Positions 2,561 to 24,871 of a stretch of DNA of 64,000 nucleotides are shown here, piece after piece (within the stretch, counting starts at the first letter, position 1; each line of letters begins with the position of its first letter). The notes below the pieces were generated by a model that saw only the letters and a program-made list of their open reading frames with translations, was not told the origin of the DNA and did no database searches. A program made the position numbers and the translations under genes. Source of the DNA: an uncultured Spirochaetota bacterium (lineage in GTDB: Bacteria; Spirochaetota; Spirochaetia; SZUA-6; Fen-1364); assembly GCA_963845325.1 (NCBI GenBank), contig CAWJRT010000016.1, positions 39,780 through 103,779 on the forward strand, in the 5' to 3' direction.

Positions 2561-4296
2561 TTACTCCTCCTGATTGAGTATATCTGTTTTCAGGGCACCC
2601 TGCAGGATGGACAGCGCGGCTGTCCTGACCACCGGATCGAAGCCGCCGCGCGAGATGGACAGCAGGACGGAGATCGCCGAGGGTTCGGCGATGGTCCCTT
2701 CGTAGACGCTGATGCGGGCAATCGCTTCCACCACGGCGGAGGCCAGGCGGCTGTCGGGGGCGAGCGATGCGCGGCTGGCGAACGCCTGGAGGACCGAGCG
2801 CAGGGAGAGGCCGTCGCCGTCGCTTGCAATTGCGCCGAGGGCCCGAATTTCCGCGGCAAGGGCGACACCGTCCGTTTCTGCACCGAGGGCGCGCAGCAGG
2901 GCCGTGCGGGAGCCGGTCGATCCCACGCGTCCGAGCAGGCCGTCGGCCTCCGCCCGGAGATCCGGGAAATCGTTGACGAGCCTCTGGTTCAGCCTGGCCT
3001 GGGAAACAAGCCCGAGGCCCGCGACGCCCTCCAGCATCCTCACCGCGTACCAGGTGCTCTTGCCGAGGGAACGGGAGGCAATGCGGCTGCCGACATCCGA
3101 GAGAAAGAGCCGGATGCCTTCGCGGCCGGAAACGCTCAGCAGCCCCTGGAGGTAGAGATAGTCAGGATTGCCGTCAAGGAGCGCCCCGTTGTCCGAGCGG
3201 AGAGCGGCGTCTGTCCGCCCCGAATGCATGATGTCGTGGCCCTGCTGCGGCCAGGGCGCGGAACCGGAACCGCGCGGGAGGGTCAGGCTCTGCGGCGCAA
3301 TAACGGCGGAAACGATCCAATCCCGCCCCCCGACAAGGATCACGCCGTCGGCGGAGAGGCTCGCTCCTCCCTCGGCTCCCTGCGTGAGGCTCGTGACCGC
3401 GCCGCGGACCGGCTCCATGGCGACGAGGGATCCGTCCTGCGCCCCAAGGACCACGACGTCGTGGACCATCAATGGCGGTGCGCTCAGGGGCCTCCCAGCG
3501 TCTCTCTGCCAGAGCTGCCCGGCCTTCAAGAGAGAATCCGGTGACACGGCCGCCGCCGGTTGCAGCGACGATCTGCAGGGCATCCACGGCCACGCCCCGG
3601 ACGGGCGCGTCCAGGGTCTTCCTCCACCGGACGTTGCCCGCCGGACTCACAGCGGCAATTTCTCCCGCTTCCGTGCCGAGCAGAAGAGTTCCGTCTGCCG
3701 CGATGGAAGGCGGGCTGGGAGCAGCACTGAAAGGGATCGACCACTTGAACTCACCCCATGGCGTGAGCGCGTACAGCCGCCGATCGGCTGCAACCACGTA
3801 GATCGAGCCGGAACCGTCGATTGCCGGCTGGCCGGTCACCGCGCCGGGAAATGTGACCGACCATTCGCGCCTGCCAAGGTGTGAAAGCGCAACGAGGGTT
3901 CCGGCCGACGTCCCGACCAGCACGGTGCCGTCCTCCGCGATCGCCGGATCGCCGGCCGGAAGCCCGTCGAGACGGATGGTCCAGAGCCTGCCGCCGTGCG
4001 GGTTCACTGCAATGAAATCGGCGTTCTTCAGGCCGGCATAGATTGTTCCGTCAGGACTGACGGCAAGACAGTCCCATGGGATCCACCCCAGGTCATGCTT
4101 CCAGAGGAGACTGCCCCCATGAACCCAGGCGTACAGGAAGCTGTCCTCCGACAGCGCATAGGACGCGCCGCCGGGTCCCATCGCGGGCCTGCTGCGGATC
4201 TGTCCGCCGGTTGCCGCGCGCCAAAGGTATGGCGTCTGGGCCCACGCAGGCACCAGAGAGCAGAGAGCGATGACCGCCGCCAGCAGGGGCCCTTGT
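2561..4296 (-). CDS. Secreted PQQ-like beta-propeller repeat protein with C-terminal HEAT/PBS-lyase-like repeats. There is one frameshift at ~3560.
   Basis: ORF 3174..4502 has a signal peptide (KQGPLLAAVIALCSLVPAWA) followed by repeated DGT[IVL]Y.G..DG.L.A...G propeller blades. This continues into ORF 2561..3583 with further blades and then alpha-helical repeats (LLRALGAETDGVALAAEIRALGAIAS...). The start is a probable GTG at ~4296. Confidence 0.6.
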
Positions 4297-4386: not shown

Positions 4387-6024
4387 ATGCGGCCATGGTC
4401 TACAGCTTCGCGCTCGGCTCGCTCCCCTCCACCACCCGGCTCGTTCGCAGACTTCTGGGAGGCAAAGGCGGCAATCCGCAAGATGATCCCCCGGGATTTC
4501 ATGGAGCCGCACGCGCTGGCCGAGCAGGCACGCCTGGTCGACGCGCGGACCTATGACCGCGACGTGCTGTGCGAGGTCCTCAGGGAACAGAACGAGAGGT
4601 TCGGTGCGGGGCCTGCGGCGCTGGGCACTATTGCCCGCCTCCAGAACACCGCTGCGCTCGTCGTCATCGGCGGACAGCAGGCGGGGCTGTTCGGCGGCCC
4701 TCTCTACACCGTGCACAAGGCATTGACCATCCTGGCCGTTGCGCGCCACGCAGAGGTGACGCTGCAGAGGCCCGTCGTCCCGATTTTCTGGATCGCCTCG
4801 GAGGACAGCGACCTCGCGGAGGTGGACCATACCTACACCACGGACAGGGAAGGAAGGCTGGTCTCGCTGAGAATGCCCGGCGCGGCACCCGTAAAGGTTC
4901 CCGTCTCTCGGATCCGCCTGGGCGAGGCCATCGGACCGCTGCTCGACGAGCTGGCCGGGTTGCTCCCCGAAGGCGACATCGCTCGGGAGGTGATGGCTGA
5001 GCTGCGGGCTGCATATACGTCCGGGCGCACGTACCCCCAGGCCTTCGGCGCGTGGATGGCGCACCTGTTCGGACCCCTCGGACTTGGGCTGGTAGATCCG
5101 TCGGACGTGCGCTTGAAGCGGCTGGCGCACGACCTCTTCCAGAGGGAGATAACGGAAAAAAGCCCGGTGAGCGCCGCCGTCATCGAGCAGACGGCCCGCC
5201 TCACCGCGGCCGGCGACGAACCCCAGCTCGACCTGCGCGAAGGTTTCCTGACCTTGTTCCACCAGGACCCGTCGCGGGACTCCATCACGGTGACGGCACG
5301 GGGTTTCCAGCTGAAGTCTTCCGGCAGACGGTTCACGCCGGGTGAGCTATCGTCCCTCCTGGGGAGCAGCCCCGGGTCCTTCACACCCAACGCGGCCATG
5401 CGGCCGCTGTTCCAGGACACCATTTTTCCCACGCTCTCCATCGTGCTGGGCCCCGCGGAGATAGCCTATTTCTGCCAGCTGACTCTCGCGTACGAGCGCC
5501 TCGACATCCCGATGCCCGTCATTGTTCCCCGTGCCTCTCTGACGCTCCTCGAGCCGAAGGTTGACCGGCTTCGCATCAAGCTCGGGGTGGACCTCCCGCA
5601 GCTCCTTGAACGTGGAGAACGGGTCATCGATGATATCCTGCGAAAGAAGGTCCCCGCGTCTCTTGGACAGCGCATCGCCGACGGACGGCAGGCCGTTACG
5701 GGGCTCTGGGACGGAATCCTTGCGGAAATAGACTCGCTTGATCCGACGCTCCACCGGACCGCGCTGGTCGGGTCGGCGCGCATGCTGCGTCAATTCGACT
5801 TCATGGAAAAGAAGATTGCCCAGGCTGCACGGAAGAAGAACGAGATCCTGCGGGGACAGGTCGGGCGCCTGACCGCGGCGCTGGCGCCGCACGGCGCCCT
5901 TCAGGAGAGGACCCTCTGCGTTGTACCCTTCCTCGCCCGGCACGGCAGCAGTGTGCTGTCGGCCGCGGCCGCGGCGATTGATCCGTTCGCACCGGAACAC
6001 CGGGTCCTCGTGGTAGAAGCATGA
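4387..6024 (+). CDS. bshC: Bacillithiol biosynthesis cysteine-adding enzyme BshC.
   Basis: The motif VVIGGQQAGLFGGPLYTVHKALTILAVARH...RPVVPIFWIASEDSDLAEVDH matches the BshC (YllA) signature VVGGQQAGLLTGPLYTIHK...PVIPIFWVAGEDHDLDE. The gene is ~545 aa and the start is chosen at ATG 4387. Confidence 0.8.
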   Translation: MRPWSTASRSARSPPPPGSFADFWEAKAAIRKMIPRDFMEPHALAEQARLVDARTYDRDVLCEVLREQNERFGAGPAALGTIARLQNTAALVVIGGQQAGLFGGPLYTVHKALTILAVARHAEVTLQRPVVPIFWIASEDSDLAEVDHTYTTDREGRLVSLRMPGAAPVKVPVSRIRLGEAIGPLLDELAGLLPEGDIAREVMAELRAAYTSGRTYPQAFGAWMAHLFGPLGLGLVDPSDVRLKRLAHDLFQREITEKSPVSAAVIEQTARLTAAGDEPQLDLREGFLTLFHQDPSRDSITVTARGFQLKSSGRRFTPGELSSLLGSSPGSFTPNAAMRPLFQDTIFPTLSIVLGPAEIAYFCQLTLAYERLDIPMPVIVPRASLTLLEPKVDRLRIKLGVDLPQLLERGERVIDDILRKKVPASLGQRIADGRQAVTGLWDGILAEIDSLDPTLHRTALVGSARMLRQFDFMEKKIAQAARKKNEILRGQVGRLTAALAPHGALQERTLCVVPFLARHGSSVLSAAAAAIDPFAPEHRVLVVEA

Positions 6025-13527: not shown

Positions 13528-14416
13528 GCGAAAAGCCTTTCGCCGTAGAGCATGAACGCCAGCCCGACTATTGCAATGGGCACGCCAAGGGCGAGGAACG
13601 GAGTCGGTGTCTCGGCTGCCAGCAGAAGGCCGAGCACCAGCGCAATGATCGGGTTCACCAGGGCGTAGCTCACCAGCCGCTCGGCCGGCTCCACCCCACG
13701 AGATAGGTGTACGCGCTGAAAGCGGCGGATCCGATCACGCCGAGGTACAGCACGCCCACGATGGACAGCAGGGACGCCGAGGCCAGCACGGGACCCGGCG
13801 CAGGTCCGATGACGGCGCACACCAGGAGGCTCACGATGCCCACAAACAGCATCTGTATCCCGCTGTTCAGGGTGGTGTCCCCGCTCACCGGGAATCGGTG
13901 GCCAAGGCTCGTTGCCAGCCCCCAGGACAGGACCCCTCCCGCGCCGATGAGCACGGAGGCGTTCAAAGTCGTCCGCAGCGAGTGGCCGTTGTAGAGAAGC
14001 ACGGCCACCCCGGCCAGCCCGAAGACAACTCCCAGGATCCGCGCGGCGGTGAGGCTCTTGCGCAGCAGCAGGGAATCGAAAACCGCCACCACGAGGGGTG
14101 TGGACGATGCGAGCAGCGCGGCCAGGTAGCTGTCGACATTGCGTTCGGCGATGGTTATCCCGCCGTTGCCCAGGAGAATGAGCAGGATTCCGAGGACGAT
14201 GGAAGAGAGGACGCTGCGCAGGGAAGGAAGCTTCTTCAGGCTCCCCCTGCCGGCAGCCACGGCCAGGAGGAGACCGCCGCCGATCAGCCAGCGGAAGGCC
14301 ATGACCCACATCGGCGGGATTGTCAGCACGGACTGGCGGATGAAGAAATACGTGGATCCCCAGACGACGTAGATGGTGGCGTAGCTTGCGATGACAAGAC
14401 CCGGCTGGCGCTTCAT
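13497..14416 (-). CDS. EamA/DMT-family transporter, with one frameshift at ~13680.
   Basis: It has ten predicted TM helices and two EamA-like halves. The parts are in ORFs 13670..14608 (start MKRQPGLVIAS) and 13494..14309. Confidence 0.7.
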
Positions 14417-14495
14417 CGGTGAATCACCGACCCACTTTCTACCATTTTTCCTCCGCCCATTGACATCCCCTCCCCCTCCCCGTACCTTGGGGGGC

Positions 14496-16283
14496 ATGAC
14501 GGGCAGCGAGCTGAGGCGCAAATACATCGATTTCTTCAAGGGAAAAGGGCATGCCGAGATCTCCGGCAAGTCCCTGATCCCCGAGAACGATCCGACGGTT
14601 CTCTTCACGACAGCGGGAATGCATCCCCTCGTCCCCTATATCCTCGGCGAGCCGCACCCGGCGGGAAGGCGGCTGGTGGACTGCCAGAAATGCGTCCGTA
14701 CGGACGACATCGACGAGGTGGGCGACACGGCGCACCTCACGTTTTTCGAGATGCTCGGCAACTGGTCGCTCGGAGACTATTTCAAGGAAGACGCCATTGC
14801 CTTCAGCTACGAGTTTCTCACGTCTCCGAGGTGGCTCGGTTTTTCCCCGGATCTCCTCTCCGTCACCGTGTTCGCCGGGGACGCCGAAGTCCCGCCCGAC
14901 AACGAGGCGGCGGCGGCCTGGAAATCAGTGGGCATCCCGGACAGCCGCATTCACTTCCTCGGCCGCAAGGACAACTGGTGGGGACCCGCCGGGCAGACCG
15001 GGCCGTGCGGTCCGGACACCGAAATGTTCATCGACACCCGTCTTCCCCCCTGCGGGCCTGACTGCAAGCCCGGATGCCACTGCGGGAAGTACATCGAGGT
15101 GTGGAACGACGTGTTCATGCAGTACAACAAGACGGCGGAGGGAAGCTACCTGCCGCTTGCCCAGAAGACGGTGGACACGGGCATGGGCGTGGACAGGACG
15201 CTGGCGATGTTCCAGGGGAAGAAAAGCGTTTTCGAGACGGAGCTGTTCTGGCCCGTCATCGAGCGGCTCCAGGAAATTTCCGGCAGGCGCTACTCCGCGG
15301 AGCCGGCCGTCGACATCTCGTTCAGGATCATCTCCGATCACCTTCGCTCCTCGGTGTTCATCATCGGTGATGACCGAGGGGTGAAGCCATCCAACCTCGG
15401 CCAGGGTTATATCCTGCGCCGGCTCATTCGACGGGCGATCCGGCATGCGCGGAAGATCGGCCTGGACGGCGACTTCCTCGGGCCGCTGTCGGGGAAGGTC
15501 GTCGCCATCTACGAGGACTTCTACCCGGAGCTCCGAGAGCGCGCGGAAATGATTGCCACGGAGCTTACGCAGGAAGAGGCACGGTTCTCCGACACTCTCC
15601 AGAAAGGCGAGCACGAGTTCGAGAAACTGCTTCCCAACCTCATGAAGAATCCCCAGAAAGTGATCCCGGGCCGCGTTGCATTCCGCTTGTACGACACCTA
15701 CGGCTTTCCCATCGAGATCACGGAAGAGCTTGCCCGCGAGCACGGCATGAGCGTGGACAGGAAAGGTTTCGAGGAGGCCTTCGAGAAGCACCAGGAGCTG
15801 TCCAAGGCGGGAGCCGAGAAGACTTTCAAGGGGGGGCTGGCGGACCATTCCGAAATGACCACGCGGCTGCACACGGCAACGCACCTCCTTCACCAGGCGC
15901 TTCGCACCGTCCTCGGCCCCCATGTCGCCCAGAAGGGCTCAAACATCACCGTGGAACGGCTGCGGTTCGATTTCGTGCATCCGAAGCCGATGTCGGAAGA
16001 GGAAGTCCGGAAAGTCGAGGCCATCGTCAACGAGCAGATCGGGCGGAACCTTCCCGTGAGCATGGAAATCCTGACCCTCGAGCAGGCGCGGGCCGCGGGC
16101 GCCATTGCCCTGTTCGGCGAGAAGTACCAGGAAAAAGTGAAGGTCTACACCATCGGAGATTTTTCGAAGGAAGTCTGCGGGGGCCCCCACGTGGAGAACA
16201 CCGGGGTGCTGGGAAAGTTCGTCATCCAGAAGGAGCAATCGTCTTCTGCGGGCGTGAGGCGGATCAGGGCGGTGCTGGAATAG
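14496..16283 (+). CDS. alaS: Alanine--tRNA ligase, short form. It ends just after the editing domain and lacks the C-Ala domain.
   Basis: It has the class II catalytic core (FTTAGMHPLVPY, QKCVRTDDIDEVGDTAHLTFFEMLGNWS), editing-domain HxxxH (HTATHLLH) and CGGPHV motifs, and terminates at GVRRIRAVLE*. The length is 595 aa against ~870 aa for canonical AlaRS. Confidence 0.9.
   Translation: MTGSELRRKYIDFFKGKGHAEISGKSLIPENDPTVLFTTAGMHPLVPYILGEPHPAGRRLVDCQKCVRTDDIDEVGDTAHLTFFEMLGNWSLGDYFKEDAIAFSYEFLTSPRWLGFSPDLLSVTVFAGDAEVPPDNEAAAAWKSVGIPDSRIHFLGRKDNWWGPAGQTGPCGPDTEMFIDTRLPPCGPDCKPGCHCGKYIEVWNDVFMQYNKTAEGSYLPLAQKTVDTGMGVDRTLAMFQGKKSVFETELFWPVIERLQEISGRRYSAEPAVDISFRIISDHLRSSVFIIGDDRGVKPSNLGQGYILRRLIRRAIRHARKIGLDGDFLGPLSGKVVAIYEDFYPELRERAEMIATELTQEEARFSDTLQKGEHEFEKLLPNLMKNPQKVIPGRVAFRLYDTYGFPIEITEELAREHGMSVDRKGFEEAFEKHQELSKAGAEKTFKGGLADHSEMTTRLHTATHLLHQALRTVLGPHVAQKGSNITVERLRFDFVHPKPMSEEEVRKVEAIVNEQIGRNLPVSMEILTLEQARAAGAIALFGEKYQEKVKVYTIGDFSKEVCGGPHVENTGVLGKFVIQKEQSSSAGVRRIRAVLE
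16218..16283. repeat. Direct repeat DR-L. This is the functional 3' end of alaS and the left boundary of the defence island.
   Basis: ttcgtcatccagaaggagcaatcgtcttctgcgggcgtgaggcggatcagggcggtgctggaatag aligns at ~80% identity, with an exact 23-mer ggcgtgaggcggatcagggcggt, to positions 24863-24930. Confidence 0.8.
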
Positions 16284-16325: not shown

Positions 16326-18443
16326 TTGTATAGTAGCTCTGTGAATCACAGTGAGGTAGTAAGTTTCATCTGGGGAGTCGCGGACCTCATCCGCGACACC
16401 TTCAAACGCGGCAAATACCAGGACGTGATTCTTCCCCTCACCGTGCTTCGCCGGCTTGACTGCGTGCTTGCGCCGACAAAGCAGAAGGTGCTCGCCAGAC
16501 AGGCGGAGCTGAAAAACAAGAAGCTCGAGAACCTCGACGGGATTCTCCGGACGGTGTCAGGCTTCGCCTTCTACAACACCTCCCGCTACGACTTCGAGAG
16601 ACTTCTTCAAGACGCTCAGCATCTTGCGGCCAATATTCGAAACAACATCGCCGGCTTCAGCCAGAACATGCGCGAGGTGTTGGAGAAGTTCGACTTCGAC
16701 AACACTATCAGCAAGCTCGATGAGGCGGGACTTCTTTTCCAGGTGCTGGAGAGATTCAAGAACGTCGATCTGCATCCTGATAAGATCGACAACCCGACCA
16801 TGGGCACAATCTTCGAAGAGCTCATCCGCAAGTTCAATGAGGCTCTGAATGAAAATCCCGGTGAGCACTTTACCCCCCGCGACGTCGTTCACCTGATGGT
16901 TGACCTCATGATGGCAGGAGACGAAAAGGAGATTCGCGCGAAGAAAGCCATCCGCTCCGTATACGACCCGTGTTGTGGATCGGGTGGCATGCTCATGATC
17001 GCCAAAGAACACGTGACCATCGGGCTTCGGAAAAACGGCGGCCTCCTTCGTCCCCCGATCAACAGCAGTGCAGAGATCTACCTCTTCGGCCAGGAGGTGA
17101 ACCCGGAGACCTGGGCTGTTTCGAAGTCAGACCTTTTCATGAAGGACCCGACGGGGCGTGATGCTGACAACATCATGTATGGCAGCACACTTTCGAACGA
17201 TCGCCACTCCGGACACCAGTTCGACTACCTGATCGCCAATCCGCCCTACGGCAAGGATTGGAAGCGTGACGAGGAGGCAGTCCGCGCCGAGCACGAACGC
17301 GGCGCCTCCGGGCGTTTCGGGCCGGGACTGCCGCGGATCAGCGACGGTCAGCTTCTCTTTCTCCTTCACATGCTCTCCCATGCAAAGGAACCAAAAGAAG
17401 GCGGCTCCCGAATTGCGATAATCATGAACGGGTCTCCGCTCTTTACGGGGGACGCCGGAAGCGGTGAAAGCGAAATCCGAAGGTTCATTCTGGAGAACGA
17501 TCTTCTGGAAGCAATGATCGCGCTTCCTGAGCAGCTCTTTTATAACACCGGCATCGCCACCTACATCTGGGTGGTCACGAACCGGAAGGCGGCGAAGCGC
17601 CGTGGCATGGTTCAGCTCATTGATGCCTCGTCCTTCTGGGTACAGATGCGAAAGACCCTGGGGGACAAACGCCGCGAAATTCCTTTGGAGCGTGCCCAGG
17701 ACATCCTGAGAATACTTGCCGACTTCAAAGACGGAGATACACGGGAAGATCTTGTCGTCAGCCGGATATTCCCCACCACGCACTTCGGTTTTAGAAAGAT
17801 AACGGTCGAGCGGCCGTTAAGGCTGAGCTTCCAGGCAACCCCGGAGCGGATCGCCCGGCTTGAGGATGAGAAGGCATTCATCGCACTTGCGCAAACGAAA
17901 AAGAAAGGCGCGGCAGGCGTAAAAGAACAGATGGACGGGCGTGCCGAACAGGAAGCAGTCCGCGCGCTTGTCAATTCGATGCCGAGCACACTCTTCAGGG
18001 ACCGCAGTGAGCTCGAACGCGCGCTCGACGACGTGGCCGGCACGCAAGGGATGAAGCCGGCGGCGCCGCTGAAGAAGGCCATCCTTTCCGCGCTCTCCGA
18101 ACGTGATGAGACGGCCGCCATTTGCCTCGACAAGGAGGGCCATCCCGAACCCGACCCGGAGTTGAGGGACACGGAGAGCGTGCCGCTCTCAGAGAGCGTC
18201 GAGGCTTTCTTTGAGCGCGAGGTGACGCCGCACGTACCGGATGCGTGGATCGACAAGAACAAGCGCGATCCGAAGGATGGCGAAGTCGGTCTTGTCGGCT
18301 ACGAGATCAACTTCAACCGCTACTTCTATCGCTATACCCCGCCTCGTCCGCTGGAGGACATCGAGGCCGATATTCGAGGCATCGAGACGGACATTGTGAG
18401 AATGTTGGCCGAGGTCACGGGAAGCGCGACTCGATCAAAATAA
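16326..18443 (+). CDS. hsdM: Type I restriction-modification system N6-adenine DNA methyltransferase subunit HsdM (long form, ~705 aa).
   Basis: It has the HsdM N-terminal domain (VSFIWGVADLIRDTFKRGKYQDVILPLTVLRRLD), the AdoMet motif DPCCGSGGML and the catalytic NPPY (LIANPPYG). The start is a TTG/GTG near 16326. Confidence 0.9.
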   Translation: MYSSSVNHSEVVSFIWGVADLIRDTFKRGKYQDVILPLTVLRRLDCVLAPTKQKVLARQAELKNKKLENLDGILRTVSGFAFYNTSRYDFERLLQDAQHLAANIRNNIAGFSQNMREVLEKFDFDNTISKLDEAGLLFQVLERFKNVDLHPDKIDNPTMGTIFEELIRKFNEALNENPGEHFTPRDVVHLMVDLMMAGDEKEIRAKKAIRSVYDPCCGSGGMLMIAKEHVTIGLRKNGGLLRPPINSSAEIYLFGQEVNPETWAVSKSDLFMKDPTGRDADNIMYGSTLSNDRHSGHQFDYLIANPPYGKDWKRDEEAVRAEHERGASGRFGPGLPRISDGQLLFLLHMLSHAKEPKEGGSRIAIIMNGSPLFTGDAGSGESEIRRFILENDLLEAMIALPEQLFYNTGIATYIWVVTNRKAAKRRGMVQLIDASSFWVQMRKTLGDKRREIPLERAQDILRILADFKDGDTREDLVVSRIFPTTHFGFRKITVERPLRLSFQATPERIARLEDEKAFIALAQTKKKGAAGVKEQMDGRAEQEAVRALVNSMPSTLFRDRSELERALDDVAGTQGMKPAAPLKKAILSALSERDETAAICLDKEGHPEPDPELRDTESVPLSESVEAFFEREVTPHVPDAWIDKNKRDPKDGEVGLVGYEINFNRYFYRYTPPRPLEDIEADIRGIETDIVRMLAEVTGSATRSK

Positions 18444-18453
18444 ATGTCGGCAC

Positions 18454-18482
18454 TTGACAGCAAATGTCAACTTTTATTATAA
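18454..18482 (+). promoter_or_regulatory. Near-consensus sigma70 promoter with an overlapping palindromic operator upstream of abiEi.
   Basis: TTGACA (18454-18459), a 17-nt spacer, then TATAAT (18477-18482). The -35 hexamer belongs to the perfect palindrome TTGACAgcaaaTGTCAA (18454-18470), and aaatgtc is directly repeated at 18442 and 18462. Confidence 0.6.
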
Positions 18483-18502
18483 TCCCGCCGTGAATCCTCA
18501 GG

Positions 18503-19096
18503 ATGACTCCGGCCAAACTGAAGGCGGCCGGAATCGGGGCCTTCTTCCGACCACGTGACCTCGAACCGCTGGAAATAACGTTCGCTGAGCTCCAGCGTCT
18601 TGTTGCAAGCGGCATAGTGGAGAAACTGGGGCGTGGCAGGTACCGGCTTGCGCAGATCGCGCCCAACGAGTTCGAGAGCGTCGCCATGGTGTGTTCGACC
18701 GTCCCTCGCGGCATCGTCTGTCTCCTCTCGGCTCTTCGCATGCATGAAATAGGAACACAATCGCCCCATGAGGTGTGGCTGGCACTCGACCGTAAGGCTC
18801 GAAAGCCAACTCGCTTGCCGGCACAGGTGCGCATCGTCCGCTTTTCCGGACCAATGCTGAGCTATGGCATCCATACCAGGGATATCCTCGGTGTCCCGGT
18901 CCGGCTCACTTCTCCCGCGCGAACGGTGGTCGATTGTTTCCGGTATCGATCGAAGCTCGGAATTGACATTGCGATAGAAGCCCTTCGGGATGCCGTGCGT
19001 TCGCACAAAGCGACCGTCGACGAAATCGTTCGCGCGGCTGAGGTCTGCCGCGCCGGAACGGTTCTCCGCGCATACTTGGAAGCTTTGGAAACATGA
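18503..19096 (+). CDS. abiEi: AbiEi-family antitoxin / transcriptional regulator (type IV TA).
   Basis: A 197-aa protein with an N-terminal wHTH-like region and AbiEi_4-like architecture. It overlaps the downstream nucleotidyltransferase gene by 4 nt. Confidence 0.65.
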   Translation: MTPAKLKAAGIGAFFRPRDLEPLEITFAELQRLVASGIVEKLGRGRYRLAQIAPNEFESVAMVCSTVPRGIVCLLSALRMHEIGTQSPHEVWLALDRKARKPTRLPAQVRIVRFSGPMLSYGIHTRDILGVPVRLTSPARTVVDCFRYRSKLGIDIAIEALRDAVRSHKATVDEIVRAAEVCRAGTVLRAYLEALET

Positions 19097-20040
19097 AGAA
19101 GCGCCCGCCCGTGAATGTCGCGGCATCGGTGAGAGCCCGATTGCAGCAGTACGGGATGAACAAAGGTGAAGACTTCCTGTTCGTGCTTCAGCGCTACGCC
19201 TCCGAACGCTTCCTCTACCGGCTTGGCCGGTCAGCGCACCGAAACAGCTATGTCCTCAAAGGAGCCATGCTCTTCGCGCTTTGGGGCAGCTCCTTCTATC
19301 GTCCGACACGCGATCTCGATTTCACCGGCTACGGCAGCGCCGAGACGGGCGACGTCCTCGCGGAGGTGCGCGACGTGTGCGGCATTCGGGTGCAAGACGA
19401 TGGCCTGTTATTTGACCAAACAAGCCTGACCGCTGAGCCCATTCGCGATGACGCCGAATACCGGGGCCTTCGAATAAAACTACAGGCGACCCTAGGCAGA
19501 GCCCGCATTCAGATGCAGATAGATATCGGATTCGGCAACGCAATCGAACCGCCCGCCATTGATGTCGACTATCCGGCGCTGATTGGCTCGCCCGCCCCGT
19601 CCGTTCGAGCCTATCCTCAGGAAGCTGTTGTGGCAGAGAAGCTTCAAGCGATGGTCGCGCTCGGCGAGCGTAATAGTCGCTACAAGGACTTCTACGACCT
19701 CTGGATCCTGGCAGGACAATTCCCCTTTAATGGAGCACGCCTCAGCGGTGCAATAAATGCCACGTTCACCCGCCGAAGAACCGCGATTTCTGCTGCGCTT
19801 CCTGCCGGCCTCACTCCGCGGTTCTACGTTGATGACGCCCGTGCAGGGCAGTGGCGCGCATACCTGACGCGCAGCAAGGTGCCCGGTGCCCCGCCTGATT
19901 TCGCGGTTGTGGGGGAGTTGCTGCAGTCATTTATAGGCTCAGTGTGGCGGGCGCTGGCGGCGGGCGGCCCGTTCGCAGGCTCGTGGCCACCAGGCGGACC
20001 GTGGTCGCCAGGTCTGATGCACCAGGAGGCGTCGGAGTGA
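19093..20040 (+). CDS. abiEii: AbiEii-family toxin (DUF1814 nucleotidyltransferase).
   Basis: It has the NTase-fold motifs (LKGAMLFALWG...RPTRDLDF; IQMQIDIGFGN) typical of AbiEii/DUF1814. It follows abiEi with an ATGA overlap. Confidence 0.7.
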   Translation: MKKRPPVNVAASVRARLQQYGMNKGEDFLFVLQRYASERFLYRLGRSAHRNSYVLKGAMLFALWGSSFYRPTRDLDFTGYGSAETGDVLAEVRDVCGIRVQDDGLLFDQTSLTAEPIRDDAEYRGLRIKLQATLGRARIQMQIDIGFGNAIEPPAIDVDYPALIGSPAPSVRAYPQEAVVAEKLQAMVALGERNSRYKDFYDLWILAGQFPFNGARLSGAINATFTRRRTAISAALPAGLTPRFYVDDARAGQWRAYLTRSKVPGAPPDFAVVGELLQSFIGSVWRALAAGGPFAGSWPPGGPWSPGLMHQEASE

Positions 20041-21437
20041 GCGAAGTGGGAAGCCCGGGCCTTGCTGGAGCAAAGCGCTACAAGCCGTATCCGGCGTACA
20101 AAGACTCAGGCGTGGAGTGGCTGGGGGAGATACCGGAGCACTGGGAAATGAAGAGGCTGAAAACACGGATCGTCCAATCCGGCAGGTGCACCGCCAGCAA
20201 GGAGAAATTGACTCACTGAAAGGCGAAGTACTTCCGTGCGTATGGCGCAAGGATATGGAGGCACTTGATCTCGATACCAAGGACAAAATAGAGTCAGGAC
20301 AGCTTCGCGACGAGTGCGACCAACCTTGTTTCCGTTGAAGATGATGTTATTGTCGCTAAGATCAGGCATTCTGGTTCATGGCAATCCCGGTTGCAATTGC
20401 GATGGTCTCGAAGTGGGCAGCTGCGAACCATGATCTTGCAGACGTTGATAACGCGAGCACATGGAGCTTGTCCCTGAGTCCTCTTTCTGCTGATCGCATG
20501 AGCGACACGCTGTTCGCTATGGAGAAGGAAGGCGTATGACGTTGCGGGCCTAGAAATGAGTCCAGATTGATTGCAAACACTCGCATGCACCAATACCGCA
20601 GCCACCGGAGCAGCGCGCGATCGTCGCTTTCCTCGATCGAGAGACGGCGAAGATCAGATGCGTTAGTAGCAGCAAACGAAACAGCTGATCGAACTGTTGC
20701 AGGAGAAGCGCGCTCGCCCAAATCACTCAAGCTGTGACCAAGGGTCTCGATCCGGATGCTCCCATGAAGGATTCCGGCGTCGAGTGGCTGGCTGACGATA
20801 CCGGAAAAATGGGAGAGTCAAGCGGTCTTAAGTATCTTTCCACTTTCGTCACCAGCGGCTCGAGAGGATGGGCAGATTACTATTCGGATGATGGCTCAAT
20901 ATTCTTCGCATTGGCAACCTGACAACAGATTCGATAGAAATAGATCTTGCAGACGTCCAGCATGTACACGCTCCTCGCGGCGCCGGAAAACGAAAGAATC
21001 CGCGTCCGAGCGTGTGATATTGTCATTTCCATCACAGCGTTGATAGGAGCAGTTGGTGTGGTGCCCGACGAGCATCGAGGAAGCGTTTCGTGAATCAGCA
21101 TCTGGCACTCGTGCGGCCTGTCACGCGAGCGCGTGAACCCGCGTTGGCTAGGCTATTCCATTCTGTCTGGATTTGGACACGCGCAACTGCACGAGGAGTT
21201 ATATGGCGGAACGAAGGACGGATTCGGACTCGAGGATATCCGAGCACTGACTGATCTTCGTGCCTCCGTCTATCAGTGCAAGAGCAAATTGTCACGAACT
21301 GGACGAAATGAACAGACAACACGACGCTCTTATCGCGGAAGGTCAAAGACGCCATCGAGCGCCTCAAAGAGCTTCGCACCGCCCTCATCTCCGCGGCAGT
21401 CACAGGCAAGATCGACGTGCGGGAGGAGGTTCCATGA
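20036..21437 (+). pseudogene. hsdS: Type I R-M specificity subunit HsdS. It is full length (~1.4 kb) but broken by several frameshifts and in-frame stops in the AT-richer target-recognition domains.
   Basis: TRD1 starts at [23 protein letters not shown] (20036-20219). The central conserved region PPEQRAIVAFLDRETAKI...ELLQEKRA(ALITQAVT)[17 protein letters not shown] is at 20590-20800. The C-terminal conserved LKELRTALISAAVTGKIDVREEV ends at 21437 and overlaps the hsdR ATG. No single frame is open. Confidence 0.6.
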
Positions 21438-24400
21438 GCCCCGAAATCTCCGAGCGCAGCTTCGAAGGGGATATCGAGCGCAGCCTGCTCCGGGCAGGGG
21501 CCTACCGAAGGCATTCCCCAGAAGACTATGACCGCGAGCTCTGTCTCATTCCGGCTGACCTTGTGGATTTCGTGGTGGCAACACAACCGAAGGAGTGGCA
21601 AAAACTCACGCAGCACCACGGCGACAACGTGCGTGAACGCTTTCTCAAGCGCGTCGCGTCTGAGATCGAAAGGCGCGGGGCACTGGATGTGCTTCGAAGC
21701 GGGATCAAGGATTCGGGCTGCAAGTTCAAGCTCGCCTACTTCCCGCCCGCAAGCGGGCTCAATGATGAGATCCGGCGACTTCATGCGGCGAACCTGTTTG
21801 CCGTTGCGCGGCAGGTTCGCTACAGCATCAAGAATGAGAACAGCCTGGACCTTGTGCTGTTTTTGAATGGTATCCCTCTTTTTACGGCGGAGCTGAAAAG
21901 CCCGCTTACGGGCCAGACTGTCGAGGAAGCAATTCGACAGTACAAGACCGATCGCGACACTCGGGAACCGCTCTTTGCCTATGGAAGGTGTCTCGCGCAT
22001 TTCGCCATCGATCCCGACCTGGTATACGTCGCCACGGAGCTCGCGGGAGAGAAGACGCGCTTCCTTCCCTTCAACAAGGGAAAGTTCGGTGGTGCAGGCA
22101 ATCCACCGGTATCTCCAACGCAGGAGGGATACTCAACGAGCTATCTCTGGGAGGACACGTGGTCCCGCGACAGTGTCCTCGACCTGGTGCGTCAGTTCGT
22201 CCATGAGGTGGAAGAAGAAGACGAGAAAGGTCGAAAGACCGGCAGGCGCTTCACGATCTTCCCTCGCTATCAGCAGCTCGATTGCGTGCGAAGGCTCGTC
22301 GCGCATGCGCGTGAAGCAGGCCCAGGGCACCGCTACCTGATCCAGCATTCGGCAGGAAGCGGCAAGAGCTTCACTATCGCTTGGCTTGCTCATCGGTTGG
22401 CCACCCTTCACGATTCCTCGGATCGGAGGGTTTTCGACTCAATCGTGGTCGTTACCGATCGACGCGTTCTCGATCGGCAGCTCCAGACGACAATGCGACA
22501 GTTCGAGCAGACCCTTGGCGTAGTGGAAAACATCGACACGACTTCACGCCAGCTCAAGGACGCCCTTGAAGGTGGAAAGACGATCATTGTTACAACGCTT
22601 CAGAAGTTTCCGGTCATCGTCGATGAGATCGGCGCGCTGCAGGGCAAACGCTTCGCGGTGATCGTCGATGAGGCGCATTCCTCTCAATCGGGAGAAAGCA
22701 CAAAGAGCCTCAAGGCCGTCCTCGCCTCCAAGTCCCTTGAGCAGGCGGAGGCCGAAGAGGCCAGCGCCCAGACGCCAGAAGAGGAGCTTGAAAACGCCGT
22801 CTTGTCAGAAATAGAAAAGCGTGGGCAGCTTCCTAATCTTTCCACTTTCGCGTTTACCGCCACGCCCAAGTCCAAGACGCTCGAGCTCTTCGGGACAAAA
22901 CGCGCGGATGGAAAATTCGAACCTTTCCACCTCTACACCATGCGTCAGGCCATCGAGGAGGGGTTCATCCTCGACGTGCTCGAAAATTACAGCACGTACA
23001 AATCGTACTGGCGACTGCTGAAAAGAATCGAAGCCGACCCGCGCTACGATCGAAAGAAAGCCGAGTACCTGCTCAAATCCTTCGTCGACCTCCATCCGCA
23101 CGCGATCGGGGAGAAAGTACGGATCTGCATGGAACATTTTGCTGCGCAGGCGCAGAATGCAATCGACGGCAAGGCAAAGGCCATGATCGTGACCCGCTCA
23201 CGGCTGCACGCGGTGCGCTTCAAGCTTGCCGCCGACAAGTACATTTCAGAGCACAAACTGCCCTTCAAGGCCCTCGTGGCATTCTCTGGCACCGTCAAGG
23301 ATGGCGGGGAGTCGTACACGGAATCCGGTATGAACGGCTTCCCTGCGGCACAAACGGCCAGGTCTTTCGATCGGCCGGAGTACAGGTTTCTCATAGTGGC
23401 CAACAAGTTTCAGACCGGCTTTGACCAGCCGCTTCTTCTCGCCATGTACGTTGACAAGAAACTCGGGGGCGTCAACGCGGTGCAGACCCTTTCCCGGCTC
23501 AATCGCACGCATTCGGGCAAGAAGGGTACGATAGTCATCGATTTCGCCAATGAAGCCGATCAGATCAAAATAGCCTTCGAACCATATTTCGAGACCACGC
23601 TCCTGTCCGAGGCGACTGATCCGAATCTGCTCTATGAGATTCAAACGCGGCTCGCAGCTTTCCCGGTTTATACGCCTGCCGACATTCACAACTTTGCTAT
23701 CCTCTACTTCAATGCCGCGACGAAACAGGACCGATTGTATTCCGCACTGGCCCCCGCGGTCACTCGCTTCCAGGCGCTATCCCAGGCTGAGCGGGAGGAA
23801 TTCCGCGGGCAGCTGACCGACTATGTGCGGCTCTATGCATTTCTGGCGCAGGTGCTCCCGTTTGCCGATTCGGACCTGGAGAAGTTCTATGCTTTTGCGC
23901 GGTACCTGCGGCGGCTGCTTCCTCCCGATCGCGCCGAGCTTCCGCGGGAGGTGCAGCAGAACATCGACATGGAGTCCTATCGCATCCAACGAACCGGCGG
24001 TGGAAAGATCGCACTGGAGCGGAGGCCAGGCATCCTGGAGCCAGTTGGGACCAAGGACAACCATGGGCCATGGACAGAGGAACTGGAGATGCTTTCGCGT
24101 ATCATTGCGATGCTGAATGAAAGATTCGGGCTCAACCTCGGCCCCGAGCATCGCCTGACCCTGGGTCAGATGATGGAAAAGCTCGACGGTGACGCAGCGC
24201 TTGATGCCGCCGCACGGGTCAACACCCGTGAGAACGTCCGTCTGACGTTCGATCAAAAAGTTGAGCGTGTGATCCAGGAGATCGTCGATTCCAACTTCGA
24301 GCTGTACAAGCGTATCACCGACGACCGCGCTTTTGGAGAAGCAATCAAGAACTTCCTTTTCGATCAGTACCTGCGCGCGCATCGAAACGCGGAAGAGCTA

Positions 24401-24871
24401 ATCAAGCGCGGTGAATCGAAGACGCTCGAGCTGAAGTCGACGCTTCGATGGAACGTGAAAGAGGACCGCCAGGACGACAAGGGGGTCACTCACGCCGCCT
24501 TGAAAAGCATCGCCGCCTTCCTCAACACGGAAGGAGGCGACTTGCTGGTCGGCGTTGCCAACGACGGCGCCATCGTCGGGATTGAGCGCGACCGGCTGGA
24601 AAACGACGACAAGTTCATGCTTCATCTCGCGCAGGTTGTCCGCAACGGCCTTGGCGACCGCGCAGGGACGTGCATCGACCCCAAGACGCAGATTGTGCAA
24701 GGAAAAACTGTCTGCGTGGTGAGCTGCCAACGAAGTCCCGAGCCGGTGTTCCTGAAATGGAAAGGGATGGAATCAAACCCAGACGGAGACTTCTTTGTGA
24801 GAAGCGGTCCAGGGACGGTGAAGCTCTCGCCTGAAAGCGCCAAGGAATACATAAAGACCCGCTTCAAATAA
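21434..24871 (+). CDS. hsdR: Type I restriction enzyme R subunit HsdR with a C-terminal AlbA_2 / Schlafen-like (divergent AAA) DNA-binding domain.
   Basis: It has the HsdR N-terminal nuclease region, the SF2 helicase motifs (LIQHSAGSGKSF Walker A, VIVDEAHSSQSG DEAH box) and HsdR C-domains. The last ~150 aa (KSTLRWNV...LNTEGGDLLVGVANDGAIVGIERD...DKFMLHLAQVV) match the AlbA_2/PF04326 pattern. A strong SD (GGAGGAGG) precedes the ATG. Confidence 0.9.
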   Translation: MSPEISERSFEGDIERSLLRAGAYRRHSPEDYDRELCLIPADLVDFVVATQPKEWQKLTQHHGDNVRERFLKRVASEIERRGALDVLRSGIKDSGCKFKLAYFPPASGLNDEIRRLHAANLFAVARQVRYSIKNENSLDLVLFLNGIPLFTAELKSPLTGQTVEEAIRQYKTDRDTREPLFAYGRCLAHFAIDPDLVYVATELAGEKTRFLPFNKGKFGGAGNPPVSPTQEGYSTSYLWEDTWSRDSVLDLVRQFVHEVEEEDEKGRKTGRRFTIFPRYQQLDCVRRLVAHAREAGPGHRYLIQHSAGSGKSFTIAWLAHRLATLHDSSDRRVFDSIVVVTDRRVLDRQLQTTMRQFEQTLGVVENIDTTSRQLKDALEGGKTIIVTTLQKFPVIVDEIGALQGKRFAVIVDEAHSSQSGESTKSLKAVLASKSLEQAEAEEASAQTPEEELENAVLSEIEKRGQLPNLSTFAFTATPKSKTLELFGTKRADGKFEPFHLYTMRQAIEEGFILDVLENYSTYKSYWRLLKRIEADPRYDRKKAEYLLKSFVDLHPHAIGEKVRICMEHFAAQAQNAIDGKAKAMIVTRSRLHAVRFKLAADKYISEHKLPFKALVAFSGTVKDGGESYTESGMNGFPAAQTARSFDRPEYRFLIVANKFQTGFDQPLLLAMYVDKKLGGVNAVQTLSRLNRTHSGKKGTIVIDFANEADQIKIAFEPYFETTLLSEATDPNLLYEIQTRLAAFPVYTPADIHNFAILYFNAATKQDRLYSALAPAVTRFQALSQAEREEFRGQLTDYVRLYAFLAQVLPFADSDLEKFYAFARYLRRLLPPDRAELPREVQQNIDMESYRIQRTGGGKIALERRPGILEPVGTKDNHGPWTEELEMLSRIIAMLNERFGLNLGPEHRLTLGQMMEKLDGDAALDAAARVNTRENVRLTFDQKVERVIQEIVDSNFELYKRITDDRAFGEAIKNFLFDQYLRAHRNAEELIKRGESKTLELKSTLRWNVKEDRQDDKGVTHAALKSIAAFLNTEGGDLLVGVANDGAIVGIERDRLENDDKFMLHLAQVVRNGLGDRAGTCIDPKTQIVQGKTVCVVSCQRSPEPVFLKWKGMESNPDGDFFVRSGPGTVKLSPESAKEYIKTRFK

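Follow-up and report, generated by a model that had tools for sequence, protein, structure and literature searches.

Within a 64-kb stretch of DNA from an uncultured Spirochaetota bacterium (contig CAWJRT010000016.1, positions 39,780 to 103,779; the whole 64,000 nucleotides are called the window below), an abiE cassette of the type IV toxin-antitoxin (TA) and abortive-infection type is nested in a type I restriction-modification locus, between its hsdM and hsdS genes. Positions 18442 to 18492 of the window are, with good probability, the family-conserved internal promoter and operator of this cassette, and the promoter is most likely controlled by the antitoxin AbiEi, in a manner of a known kind. 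An earlier note on this DNA had drawn attention to a consensus promoter upstream of abiEi and to a small palindrome over its -35 hexamer, which it took for an AbiEi operator. What that note observed is largely correct save for the spacer length, and its interpretation is right in kind and wrong in detail. The elements under discussion are as follows.

18442 to 18453, plus strand: AAATGTCGGCAC, putative operator half-site on the distal (left) side; it matches the family consensus perfectly and lies at about -48 to -37 relative to the predicted transcription start.
18454 to 18459, plus strand: -35 hexamer TTGACA, exact; it doubles as the left arm of the 6-bp palindrome of the earlier note.
18464 to 18473, plus strand: putative proximal (right) operator half-site, ATGTCAACTT (family: GTGCCGACAT), degenerate, at about -26 to -17.
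18478 to 18483, plus strand: -10 hexamer TATAAT, exact, 18 nt beyond the -35 hexamer.
18490 to 18558, plus strand: predicted transcription start and family start-codon position, GTG 18490; it is not in the abiEi frame and begins a 22-codon open reading frame (ORF) that ends at TGA 18556-58.

The sequence from 18440 to 18505 reads ataaATGTCGGCAC TTGACA gcaaATGTCAACTTttat TATAAT cccgcc GTG aatcctcagg ATG. The TTGACA and TATAAT pair is the sole 12/12 sigma-70 match within the window, and none of 100 dinucleotide shuffles gave one, in agreement with the earlier description of both hexamers as perfect and rare in this DNA. The spacer had been given as 17 nt. That length can be ruled out, given that the exact match has 18 nt and a hexamer at the shorter distance would read TTATAA. 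By sequence, the element has what a sigma-70-type promoter is expected to have: near-consensus hexamers, a spacer within 16-18 nt and a position that is kept among relatives. The two small repeats that had been described are present as well. The inverted repeat TTGACA/TGTCAA, with the -35 hexamer as one arm, lies at 18454-59 and 18465-70, is perfect over 6 bp only and has 5 nt between its arms; the direct repeat AAATGTC lies at 18442-48 and 18462-68, with its copies 20 bp apart. In dinucleotide shuffles of the 62-nt segment, a perfect inverted repeat of 6 bp or more turns up about 12% of the time, a direct repeat of 7 nt about 2% of the time, and the two combined about 0.4% of the time. By themselves, the small palindrome and the direct repeat are weak evidence, and their meaning comes only via comparison with relatives.

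A database search with the window AbiEi retrieved 5720 homologous proteins, the best 120 of which are 69-100% identical to it. The loci compared were 80 genome loci from more than 15 phylum-level lineages, 80 metagenome loci, the closest relatives (79-87% identical) and eight distant plasmid homologues (40-50%); the plasmid homologues apart, the examined loci are 61-87% identical to the window AbiEi and represent many phyla. About 146 distinct upstream regions from the genome and metagenome loci align without gaps, and give the family model AA-ATGTCGGCAC-TTGnnn-nnnn-GTGCCGACAT-nnnn-TAnnnT-6 nt-ATG, with the left block at positions 1-10, the -35 at 11-16, the right block at 21-30 and the -10 at 35-40. 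The information content, computed directly from these 146 loci, is 1.5-2.0 bits at most core positions. The two 10-bp blocks ATGTCGGCAC and GTGCCGACAT are mutual reverse complements, and the 10-nt gap between them places them on either side of the -35. At least nine of ten arm positions are complementary in 95 of the 138 loci outside the clade to which the window belongs, and the variable pair L2/R29 mostly changes symmetrically (TA in 75 loci, CG in 31, CA in 20 and TG in 9), in a set of loci that share some kinship. The TTG of the -35 is kept in 92-99% of the 146 loci and, together with the TAnnnT of the -10 and the 18-nt spacing, is conserved throughout, which supports the assignment of the promoter to abiEi-abiEii. 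Therefore, inverted repeats that overlap the promoter of the operon itself, as expected of an AbiE system, are found at the level of the family. The earlier proposal of an AbiEi-type operator of inverted repeats at the abiEi promoter stands insofar as the family has such an element; the part that falls is its identity, because the conserved element is ATGTCGGCAC-N10-GTGCCGACAT rather than TTGACAgcaaaTGTCAA.

The motif is concentrated at this one position. In 876 kb of sequence from the loci, half-site matches of at least 13 bits fall on the distal site in 131 cases, and 129 more are almost all proximal sites; another 62 lie within 170 nt upstream and about 35 are elsewhere. These roughly 35 scattered matches per 876 kb give no enrichment for extra operator copies upstream of hsdM or ahead of hsdR. 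A second complete inverted-repeat pair is present in 39 loci at 43-78 nt upstream of the main repeat, often within the 3' end of hsdM. The loci with this second pair include L010, L013, L020, L025, L048, L058, L066 and L132; there is none in the window or in the rest of its clade. The repeat also follows abiEi rather than its neighbor. The repeat directly adjoins the end of hsdM in 112 of 147 loci, where abiEi-abiEii come directly after hsdM, and it stays beside abiEi where other genes separate it from hsdM, or where the flank has no hsdM. An AbiEii homologue lies downstream of abiEi in 117 of 154 loci, many of which are on truncated contigs. The distant plasmid homologues carry related or altered inverted repeats around their own -35 elements, with a GTCGG/CCGAC core in three and CTCGGA/TCCGAG in Phenylobacterium. 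As a separate observation, four loci (L036, L039, L041 and L062; three Latescibacterota and one Phycisphaerales) have an extra half-site pair just past abiEii, about 1630-1875 nt downstream of the operator, which suggests a second AbiEi-controlled promoter for the next gene.

The copy in the window is half intact. The distal half-site scores 22.1 bits, the maximum possible, and is the top 12-mer of the whole window on both strands. The proximal half-site scores only 4.4 bits, compared to a family mean of 17.6 and a 5th percentile of 9.8. Four mismatches separate ATGTCAACTT from GTGCCGACAT, two of them at highly conserved core positions, 24 (T in place of C) and 26 (A in place of G), where the base of the window is seen in just 5% of loci each. 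Complementarity between the arms extends to only 6 of 10 positions, such that two intact half-sites are not found here, and the expectation in the earlier note of a tightly regulated TA pair is not supported, with only one of the two intact. Three further half-site matches in the window are probably chance matches in a G+C-rich genome: GAATGTCGGCAG at 23676 on the minus strand, inside hsdR (16.9 bits), AGATGTCGGCAT at 2275 on the plus strand (16.3 bits) and GGATGTCGGCAG at 3087 on the minus strand (14.0 bits).

The small repeats can be traced to this decay. The decayed proximal half-site includes the right arm of the palindrome, TGTCAA at 18465-70, along with the larger part of the second copy of AAATGTC (18462-68), and each half-site is itself quasi-palindromic (TGnCGnCA). 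Given that quasi-symmetry, G-to-A and C-to-T changes make the proximal site mimic a direct copy of the distal site, which accounts for the AAATGTC direct repeat. Judged from the aligned sequences, then, both the TTGACA/TGTCAA palindrome and the AAATGTC repeat appear to be incidental by-products of proximal half-site decay.

Decay of the proximal site is shared by the nearest relatives. The window and its eight closest distinct relatives form a clade of nine distinct sequences, with AbiEi 79-87% identical to that of the window, that is monophyletic in a neighbor-joining tree. All nine have a weak proximal site, from -8 to 7.8 bits. Among them, no column of 12 varies in the distal half-site and one of 6 varies in the -35, compared to 7 of 10 in the proximal half-site and 26 of 27 in the adjacent hsdM coding sequence. 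In L164 (positions 5960-5995 of that locus), with AbiEi 85% identical, the proximal site now repeats the distal one almost perfectly in direct orientation (AAATGTCGGCAT, 19.2 bits when scored that way); the quasi-palindromic half-site makes such a direct rather than inverted repeat possible. The drift is clade-wide and present also in relatives with an intact hsdS, and it therefore predates decay in the genome of the window. All nine clade sequences also have Arg in place of Leu at wing residue 46 of AbiEi (G-x-G-R-Y-R-L), a change seen in none of 138 others. Residue 46 opens the second wing strand in the AlphaFold model (strands 39-43 and 46-49). Because the substitution is a single evolutionary event, a tie between Arg46 and the change in the operator is a lead only.

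The family arrangement points to translation from the 5' end of the message. An in-frame ATG, GTG or TTG lies 5-8 nt past the -10 in 134 of 148 distinct loci, and exactly 6 nt past it in 94. With an in-frame start codon at the expected transcription start, the family abiE mRNA is most likely leaderless. The window stands apart from this pattern: its abiEi ATG, at 18503, is 19 nt past the -10 and 13 nt into the predicted transcript. The alignment with L161, L165 and L171 has an indel around 18502, and it is because of this indel that GTG 18490 is out of frame.

The candidate reader of the repeat is AbiEi, which belongs to the AbiE antitoxins by sequence profile and by fold. The window AbiEi matches Pfam AbiEi_4 with an E value of 1.3e-5, just above the curated cutoff, and a profile of 32 AbiEi homologues matches Protein Data Bank (PDB) entry 6y8q over 145 residues in a collinear fashion (E 0.0034). 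Its AlphaFold model, with a predicted local distance difference test (pLDDT) score of 84, has 6y8q as its best fold match (E 6.5e-11, template modeling (TM) score 0.63), followed by 1zel, Rv2827c of M. tuberculosis (E 1.2e-4). Neither AbiEi nor AbiEii has a match in NCBIfam. The fold homology, computed directly, supports the earlier view of this protein as the counterpart of the S. agalactiae autorepressor. The AbiEi of S. agalactiae and Rv2827c of M. tuberculosis are monomers, each bound to one inverted repeat in their own promoters, which they repress (PMC3985639, PMC7319586). Either repeat alone still permits AbiEi binding and repression in S. agalactiae (PMC3985639). The repeats of Rv2827c straddle the sigma-factor site, and have affinities of 0.02-11 uM, a range of over 500-fold that is tuned by the sequence of the repeat (PMC7319586). 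Only in the homologues from S. agalactiae and M. tuberculosis has AbiEii been shown to be toxic and to be neutralized by AbiEi (PMC3985639, PMC7319586).

By analogy to these systems, we infer that AbiEi is the protein bound at the ATGTCGGCAC half-sites. RNA polymerase carrying the housekeeping sigma factor would use TTGACA, the 18-nt spacer and TATAAT, and would start near 18490. The inverted half-sites of 10-12 bp, AAATGTCGGCAC and its complement at about -48/-37 and -26/-17, would bracket the -35, and one winged-helix antitoxin monomer per half-site would shut off its own promoter, as S. agalactiae AbiEi and Rv2827c do. The family abiE mRNA would be leaderless, with its start codon at +1. 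In the clade of the window, regulation would rest mainly on the distal site that adjoins the -35, and repression, if retained, would most likely proceed via that single site. The promoter would probably also feed hsdS and hsdR, via overlapping genes.

The genes on either side of this promoter follow the order hsdM, abiEi, abiEii, hsdS remnants and hsdR, which confirms the context given in the earlier note, a TA pair inside the hsd operon.

14391 to 16283: alanyl-tRNA synthetase-like (alaS-like) ORF of 630 residues, which stops just past the tRNA_SAD domain, 43 nt ahead of the hsdM ORF.
16341 to 18443, plus strand: hsdM, type I methyltransferase, with Pfam HsdM_N and N6_Mtase domains; the listed ORF starts at 16326.
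18503 to 19096, plus strand: abiEi, antitoxin and putative autorepressor of 197 residues, PF13338 (AbiEi_4), with a winged helix-turn-helix and a C-terminal domain.
19093 to 20040, plus strand: abiEii, putative DUF1814 nucleotidyltransferase toxin, PF08843 (AbiEii), E 2.4e-43.
20037 to 21434, plus strand: hsdS remnant, a pseudogene with no long ORF left, in which homology to the HsdS of relatives is broken across frames.
21434 to 24871, plus strand: hsdR with a C-terminal SLFN/AlbA_2 domain, by Pfam domains; the last gene of the unit.

The abiEi and abiEii genes share an ATGA overlap at 19093-19096, such that the DUF1814 gene lies directly downstream of the antitoxin gene in the bicistronic arrangement of AbiE systems. 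HsdM of the window is 90% identical to that of L163 over 700 residues, with homology that begins at 16341, and the stop codon of hsdM (TAA, 18441-18443) overlaps the flank of the distal half-site. HsdR is 92% identical to that of L163 over 1145 residues. The listed GTG start of hsdR at 21260 is an artefact, as homology begins only at 21434. The SLFN/AlbA_2 domain falls at about residues 1052-1189 of the listed ORF, and the fusion is kept in all close relatives with long enough contigs. For hsdS, the homologous stretches are in frame 3 at 20037-20162, in frame 1 at 20569-21249, which is interrupted by stops near 20920 and 21091, and in frame 3 again at 21279-21434; the HsdS of relatives is intact at 394-454 residues. 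Without HsdS, the type I system should be inactive. Upstream of the restriction genes, the alaS-like ORF is short for a bacterial AlaRS, which is usually about 870 residues; given its 630 residues, the hsd island may adjoin or have truncated it.

Several points weigh against a working AbiEi-controlled promoter at this site. The role of AbiEi as reader of the repeat is suggested by co-location and by distant homologues, with about 20% identity to the S. agalactiae protein, and sigma-70-type use of the promoter is assumed from conservation across phyla. Kinship among the loci inflates the apparent covariation of the arms. In the window itself, the second half-site is poor, and autoregulation may be weak or lost; ATG 18503 is not preceded by a Shine-Dalgarno sequence; and the decay of the locus, with its hsdS pseudogene and its out-of-frame GTG 18490, means that the element could be partly vestigial here.

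That last point can be pressed further, to an island in decay whose promoter and operator are past selection in this genome and have no present regulatory role. An hsdS broken by frame changes and in-frame stops, a family start codon out of frame with abiEi, and a degenerate proximal half-site would all fit. However, abiEi, abiEii, hsdM and hsdR are full-length and 80-92% identical to their intact relatives, and neither the two hexamers nor the distal half-site depart from consensus at any position. The drift of the proximal site, which extends across the clade and to relatives with an intact hsdS, is older than any decay in the genome of the window. The hsdS disruptions and the indel at 18502 are either real mutations or assembly or sequencing indels, and in the latter case would be no sign of decay. 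A purely vestigial element is thus unlikely, and a conserved promoter and operator is the preferred reading.

The palindrome could instead be the operator of this lineage, as the earlier note had it, with TTGACA-N5-TGTCAA over the -35 read perhaps by a protein of altered specificity. The repeat is perfect and overlaps the -35; L171 and L168 also have TGTCAA and L170 differs from it by one base, such that the arm may be ancestral to the clade; and the clade-only Arg46 could mark changed contacts to DNA. Loss of the palindrome from orthologous islands, which the note itself had named as grounds for refuting its reading, is nonetheless what most of the relatives display. The arm is replaced in five of the eight distinct closest relatives (L161, L163, L164, L165 and L172), by no fewer than three separate changes along the protein tree (to TGTCTG, TGACTG, TGCCTG, TGTCGG and TGCAAG), and the 6-bp palindrome is therefore rejected as a conserved element. 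That the left arm is kept follows from its role as the -35, inverted repeats of 6 bp arise in about 12% of shuffles, as described above, and the wing substitution counts as one event. A palindrome operator would also ignore the strictly conserved 12-nt distal half-site just upstream. The TGTCAA arm is a mutated remnant of the proximal half-site. The palindrome is therefore a quite improbable operator; the broader idea of an operator at the abiEi promoter survives its loss.

It is very improbable that the family repeat acts mainly as RNA, as a hairpin or intrinsic terminator of the hsdM transcript rather than as a protein operator. The repeat does begin at the hsdM stop codon in most loci, the canonical repeat folds as RNA with a mean of -16.8 kcal/mol and is followed by a T-rich TTTATTA, and the symmetric L2/R29 changes would also keep a stem. 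However, the sequence of the stem, beyond its pairing, is near 2 bits across more than 15 phylum-level lineages, which is typical of protein recognition and not of terminators. The non-pairing C-A combination is commoner than T-G, which is compatible with G-U pairing (20 loci compared to 9), there are usually only 2-4 T in the 8 nt past the stem, the repeat remains beside abiEi in loci without a neighboring hsdM, and the 39 loci described above have a second tandem repeat pair upstream. In the clade of the window, pairing is lost and one arm is invariant. The hairpin of the window is worth only -5.4 kcal/mol, and the wider 57-nt region, at -8.7 kcal/mol (z = -1.4), folds no better than shuffles. 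A scan for intrinsic (Rho-independent) terminators makes no call at the window repeat, and with neither scan nor folding in support, a terminator there is rejected. The region 18300-18650 has no Rfam match at E <= 1. A role of the repeat as a mobile-cassette boundary or recombination site can be set aside, because a matching second end would have no place where abiEii and hsdS overlap.

With an AbiEi-controlled promoter as the preferred reading, the extent of its transcription unit matters for the restriction genes. The junction of abiEii and hsdS in the window, read directly, is a GTGA overlap of 4 nt, and the same -4 overlap occurs in 23 relatives. An overlap of hsdS and hsdR is present in the relatives with called genes, L161, L163, L164, L168 and L170. 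These overlaps suggest that the promoter probably drives abiEi-abiEii-hsdS-hsdR as one unit, and make it doubtful that the TA pair is regulated independently, as the earlier note had supposed, since hsdS and hsdR would share its unit. A bolder proposal, which is possible but which we put forward only tentatively, is a composite defense module of hsdM followed by PabiE-abiEi-abiEii-hsdS-hsdR(SLFN/AlbA_2), conserved across more than 15 phylum-level lineages. In short, an antitoxin-controlled leaderless promoter would govern both the TA pair and the specificity and nuclease subunits, and the antitoxin as controller would couple restriction to the state of the TA pair; the Arg46 clade would have gone from an operator with two sites to one with a single site, with a changed set-point. 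A literature search for abiE nested between hsdM and hsdS found nothing explicit in the papers searched. Comparative-genomics papers on defense islands note toxin or abortive-infection genes in type I operons.

The closest functional parallel is the PabiE promoter of S. agalactiae (Dy et al. 2014, PMC3985639; Beck et al. 2020, PMC7319586). In both systems, the gene for a two-domain winged helix-turn-helix AbiEi lies ahead of, and overlaps, a DUF1814 toxin gene, and inverted repeats overlap the -35/-10 region of the operon's own promoter. The differences lie in the details, starting with a protein identity of about 20%. The S. agalactiae repeats are 23 bp long and 3 bp apart, with the -35 inside the first repeat (IR1), whereas the present half-sites, of 10-12 bp, flank the -35 with a gap of 10 bp between them and their centres 20 bp apart. 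The sequences of the repeats are unrelated (ATGTCGGCAC compared to TGTTGCTTTTA in S. agalactiae), the S. agalactiae mRNA has a ribosome-binding site where the AbiEi family of the window appears to be leaderless, and only one half-site is intact in the window.

The promoter of Rv2827c-Rv2826c in M. tuberculosis (PMC7319586) is similar in that there is a gap within the repeat pair, in that case of 13 bp, and the repeats straddle the sigma-factor site. Its unequal repeats have very different affinities (0.02-11 uM), a precedent for a strong and a weak site as in the window, and its four-repeat promoter resembles that of the 39 window relatives with a second tandem pair. The protein is larger, however, at about 295 residues, the length, sequence and spacing of the repeats differ, and the window has no second pair.

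Two restriction systems offer parallels for the gene arrangement. In the EcoprrI type IC locus, prrC is likewise an abortive-infection or toxin gene nested in a type I hsd operon (PMC12707154). The toxin is unrelated, however: PrrC is an anticodon nuclease, where AbiEii is a DUF1814 nucleotidyltransferase, and it comes with neither an antitoxin nor a repressor. The link between AbiE and the restriction enzyme in the present case is one of gene order. The controller (C) proteins of type II restriction-modification systems are small helix-turn-helix proteins, encoded first, that bind repeats over their own promoter and set the expression of a co-transcribed restriction gene (PMC12707154), a likeness that applies if PabiE also drives hsdS and hsdR; such control is suggested here by gene overlaps only. 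The C proteins are dimeric and of the Xre type, and both activate and repress, and no homology to AbiEi was seen.

Antitoxin autoregulation via inverted repeats in the promoter is already established for AbiE, and the principle is not new. What is new is a precisely defined and very widely conserved candidate operator motif, of which the window appears to hold a half-decayed copy. For annotation, the case suggests caution, as a neat small palindrome over a -35 can be left by accident when a larger operator has partly decayed. For a very widespread and uncharacterised AbiEi subfamily, the comparison provides a precise, testable operator, ATGTCGGCAC-N10-GTGCCGACAT around the -35, with a predicted leaderless start. 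Given that the cassette is nearly always directly after hsdM and is overlapped by hsdS, it also raises the possibility that subunits of type I restriction enzymes may be under antitoxin control.

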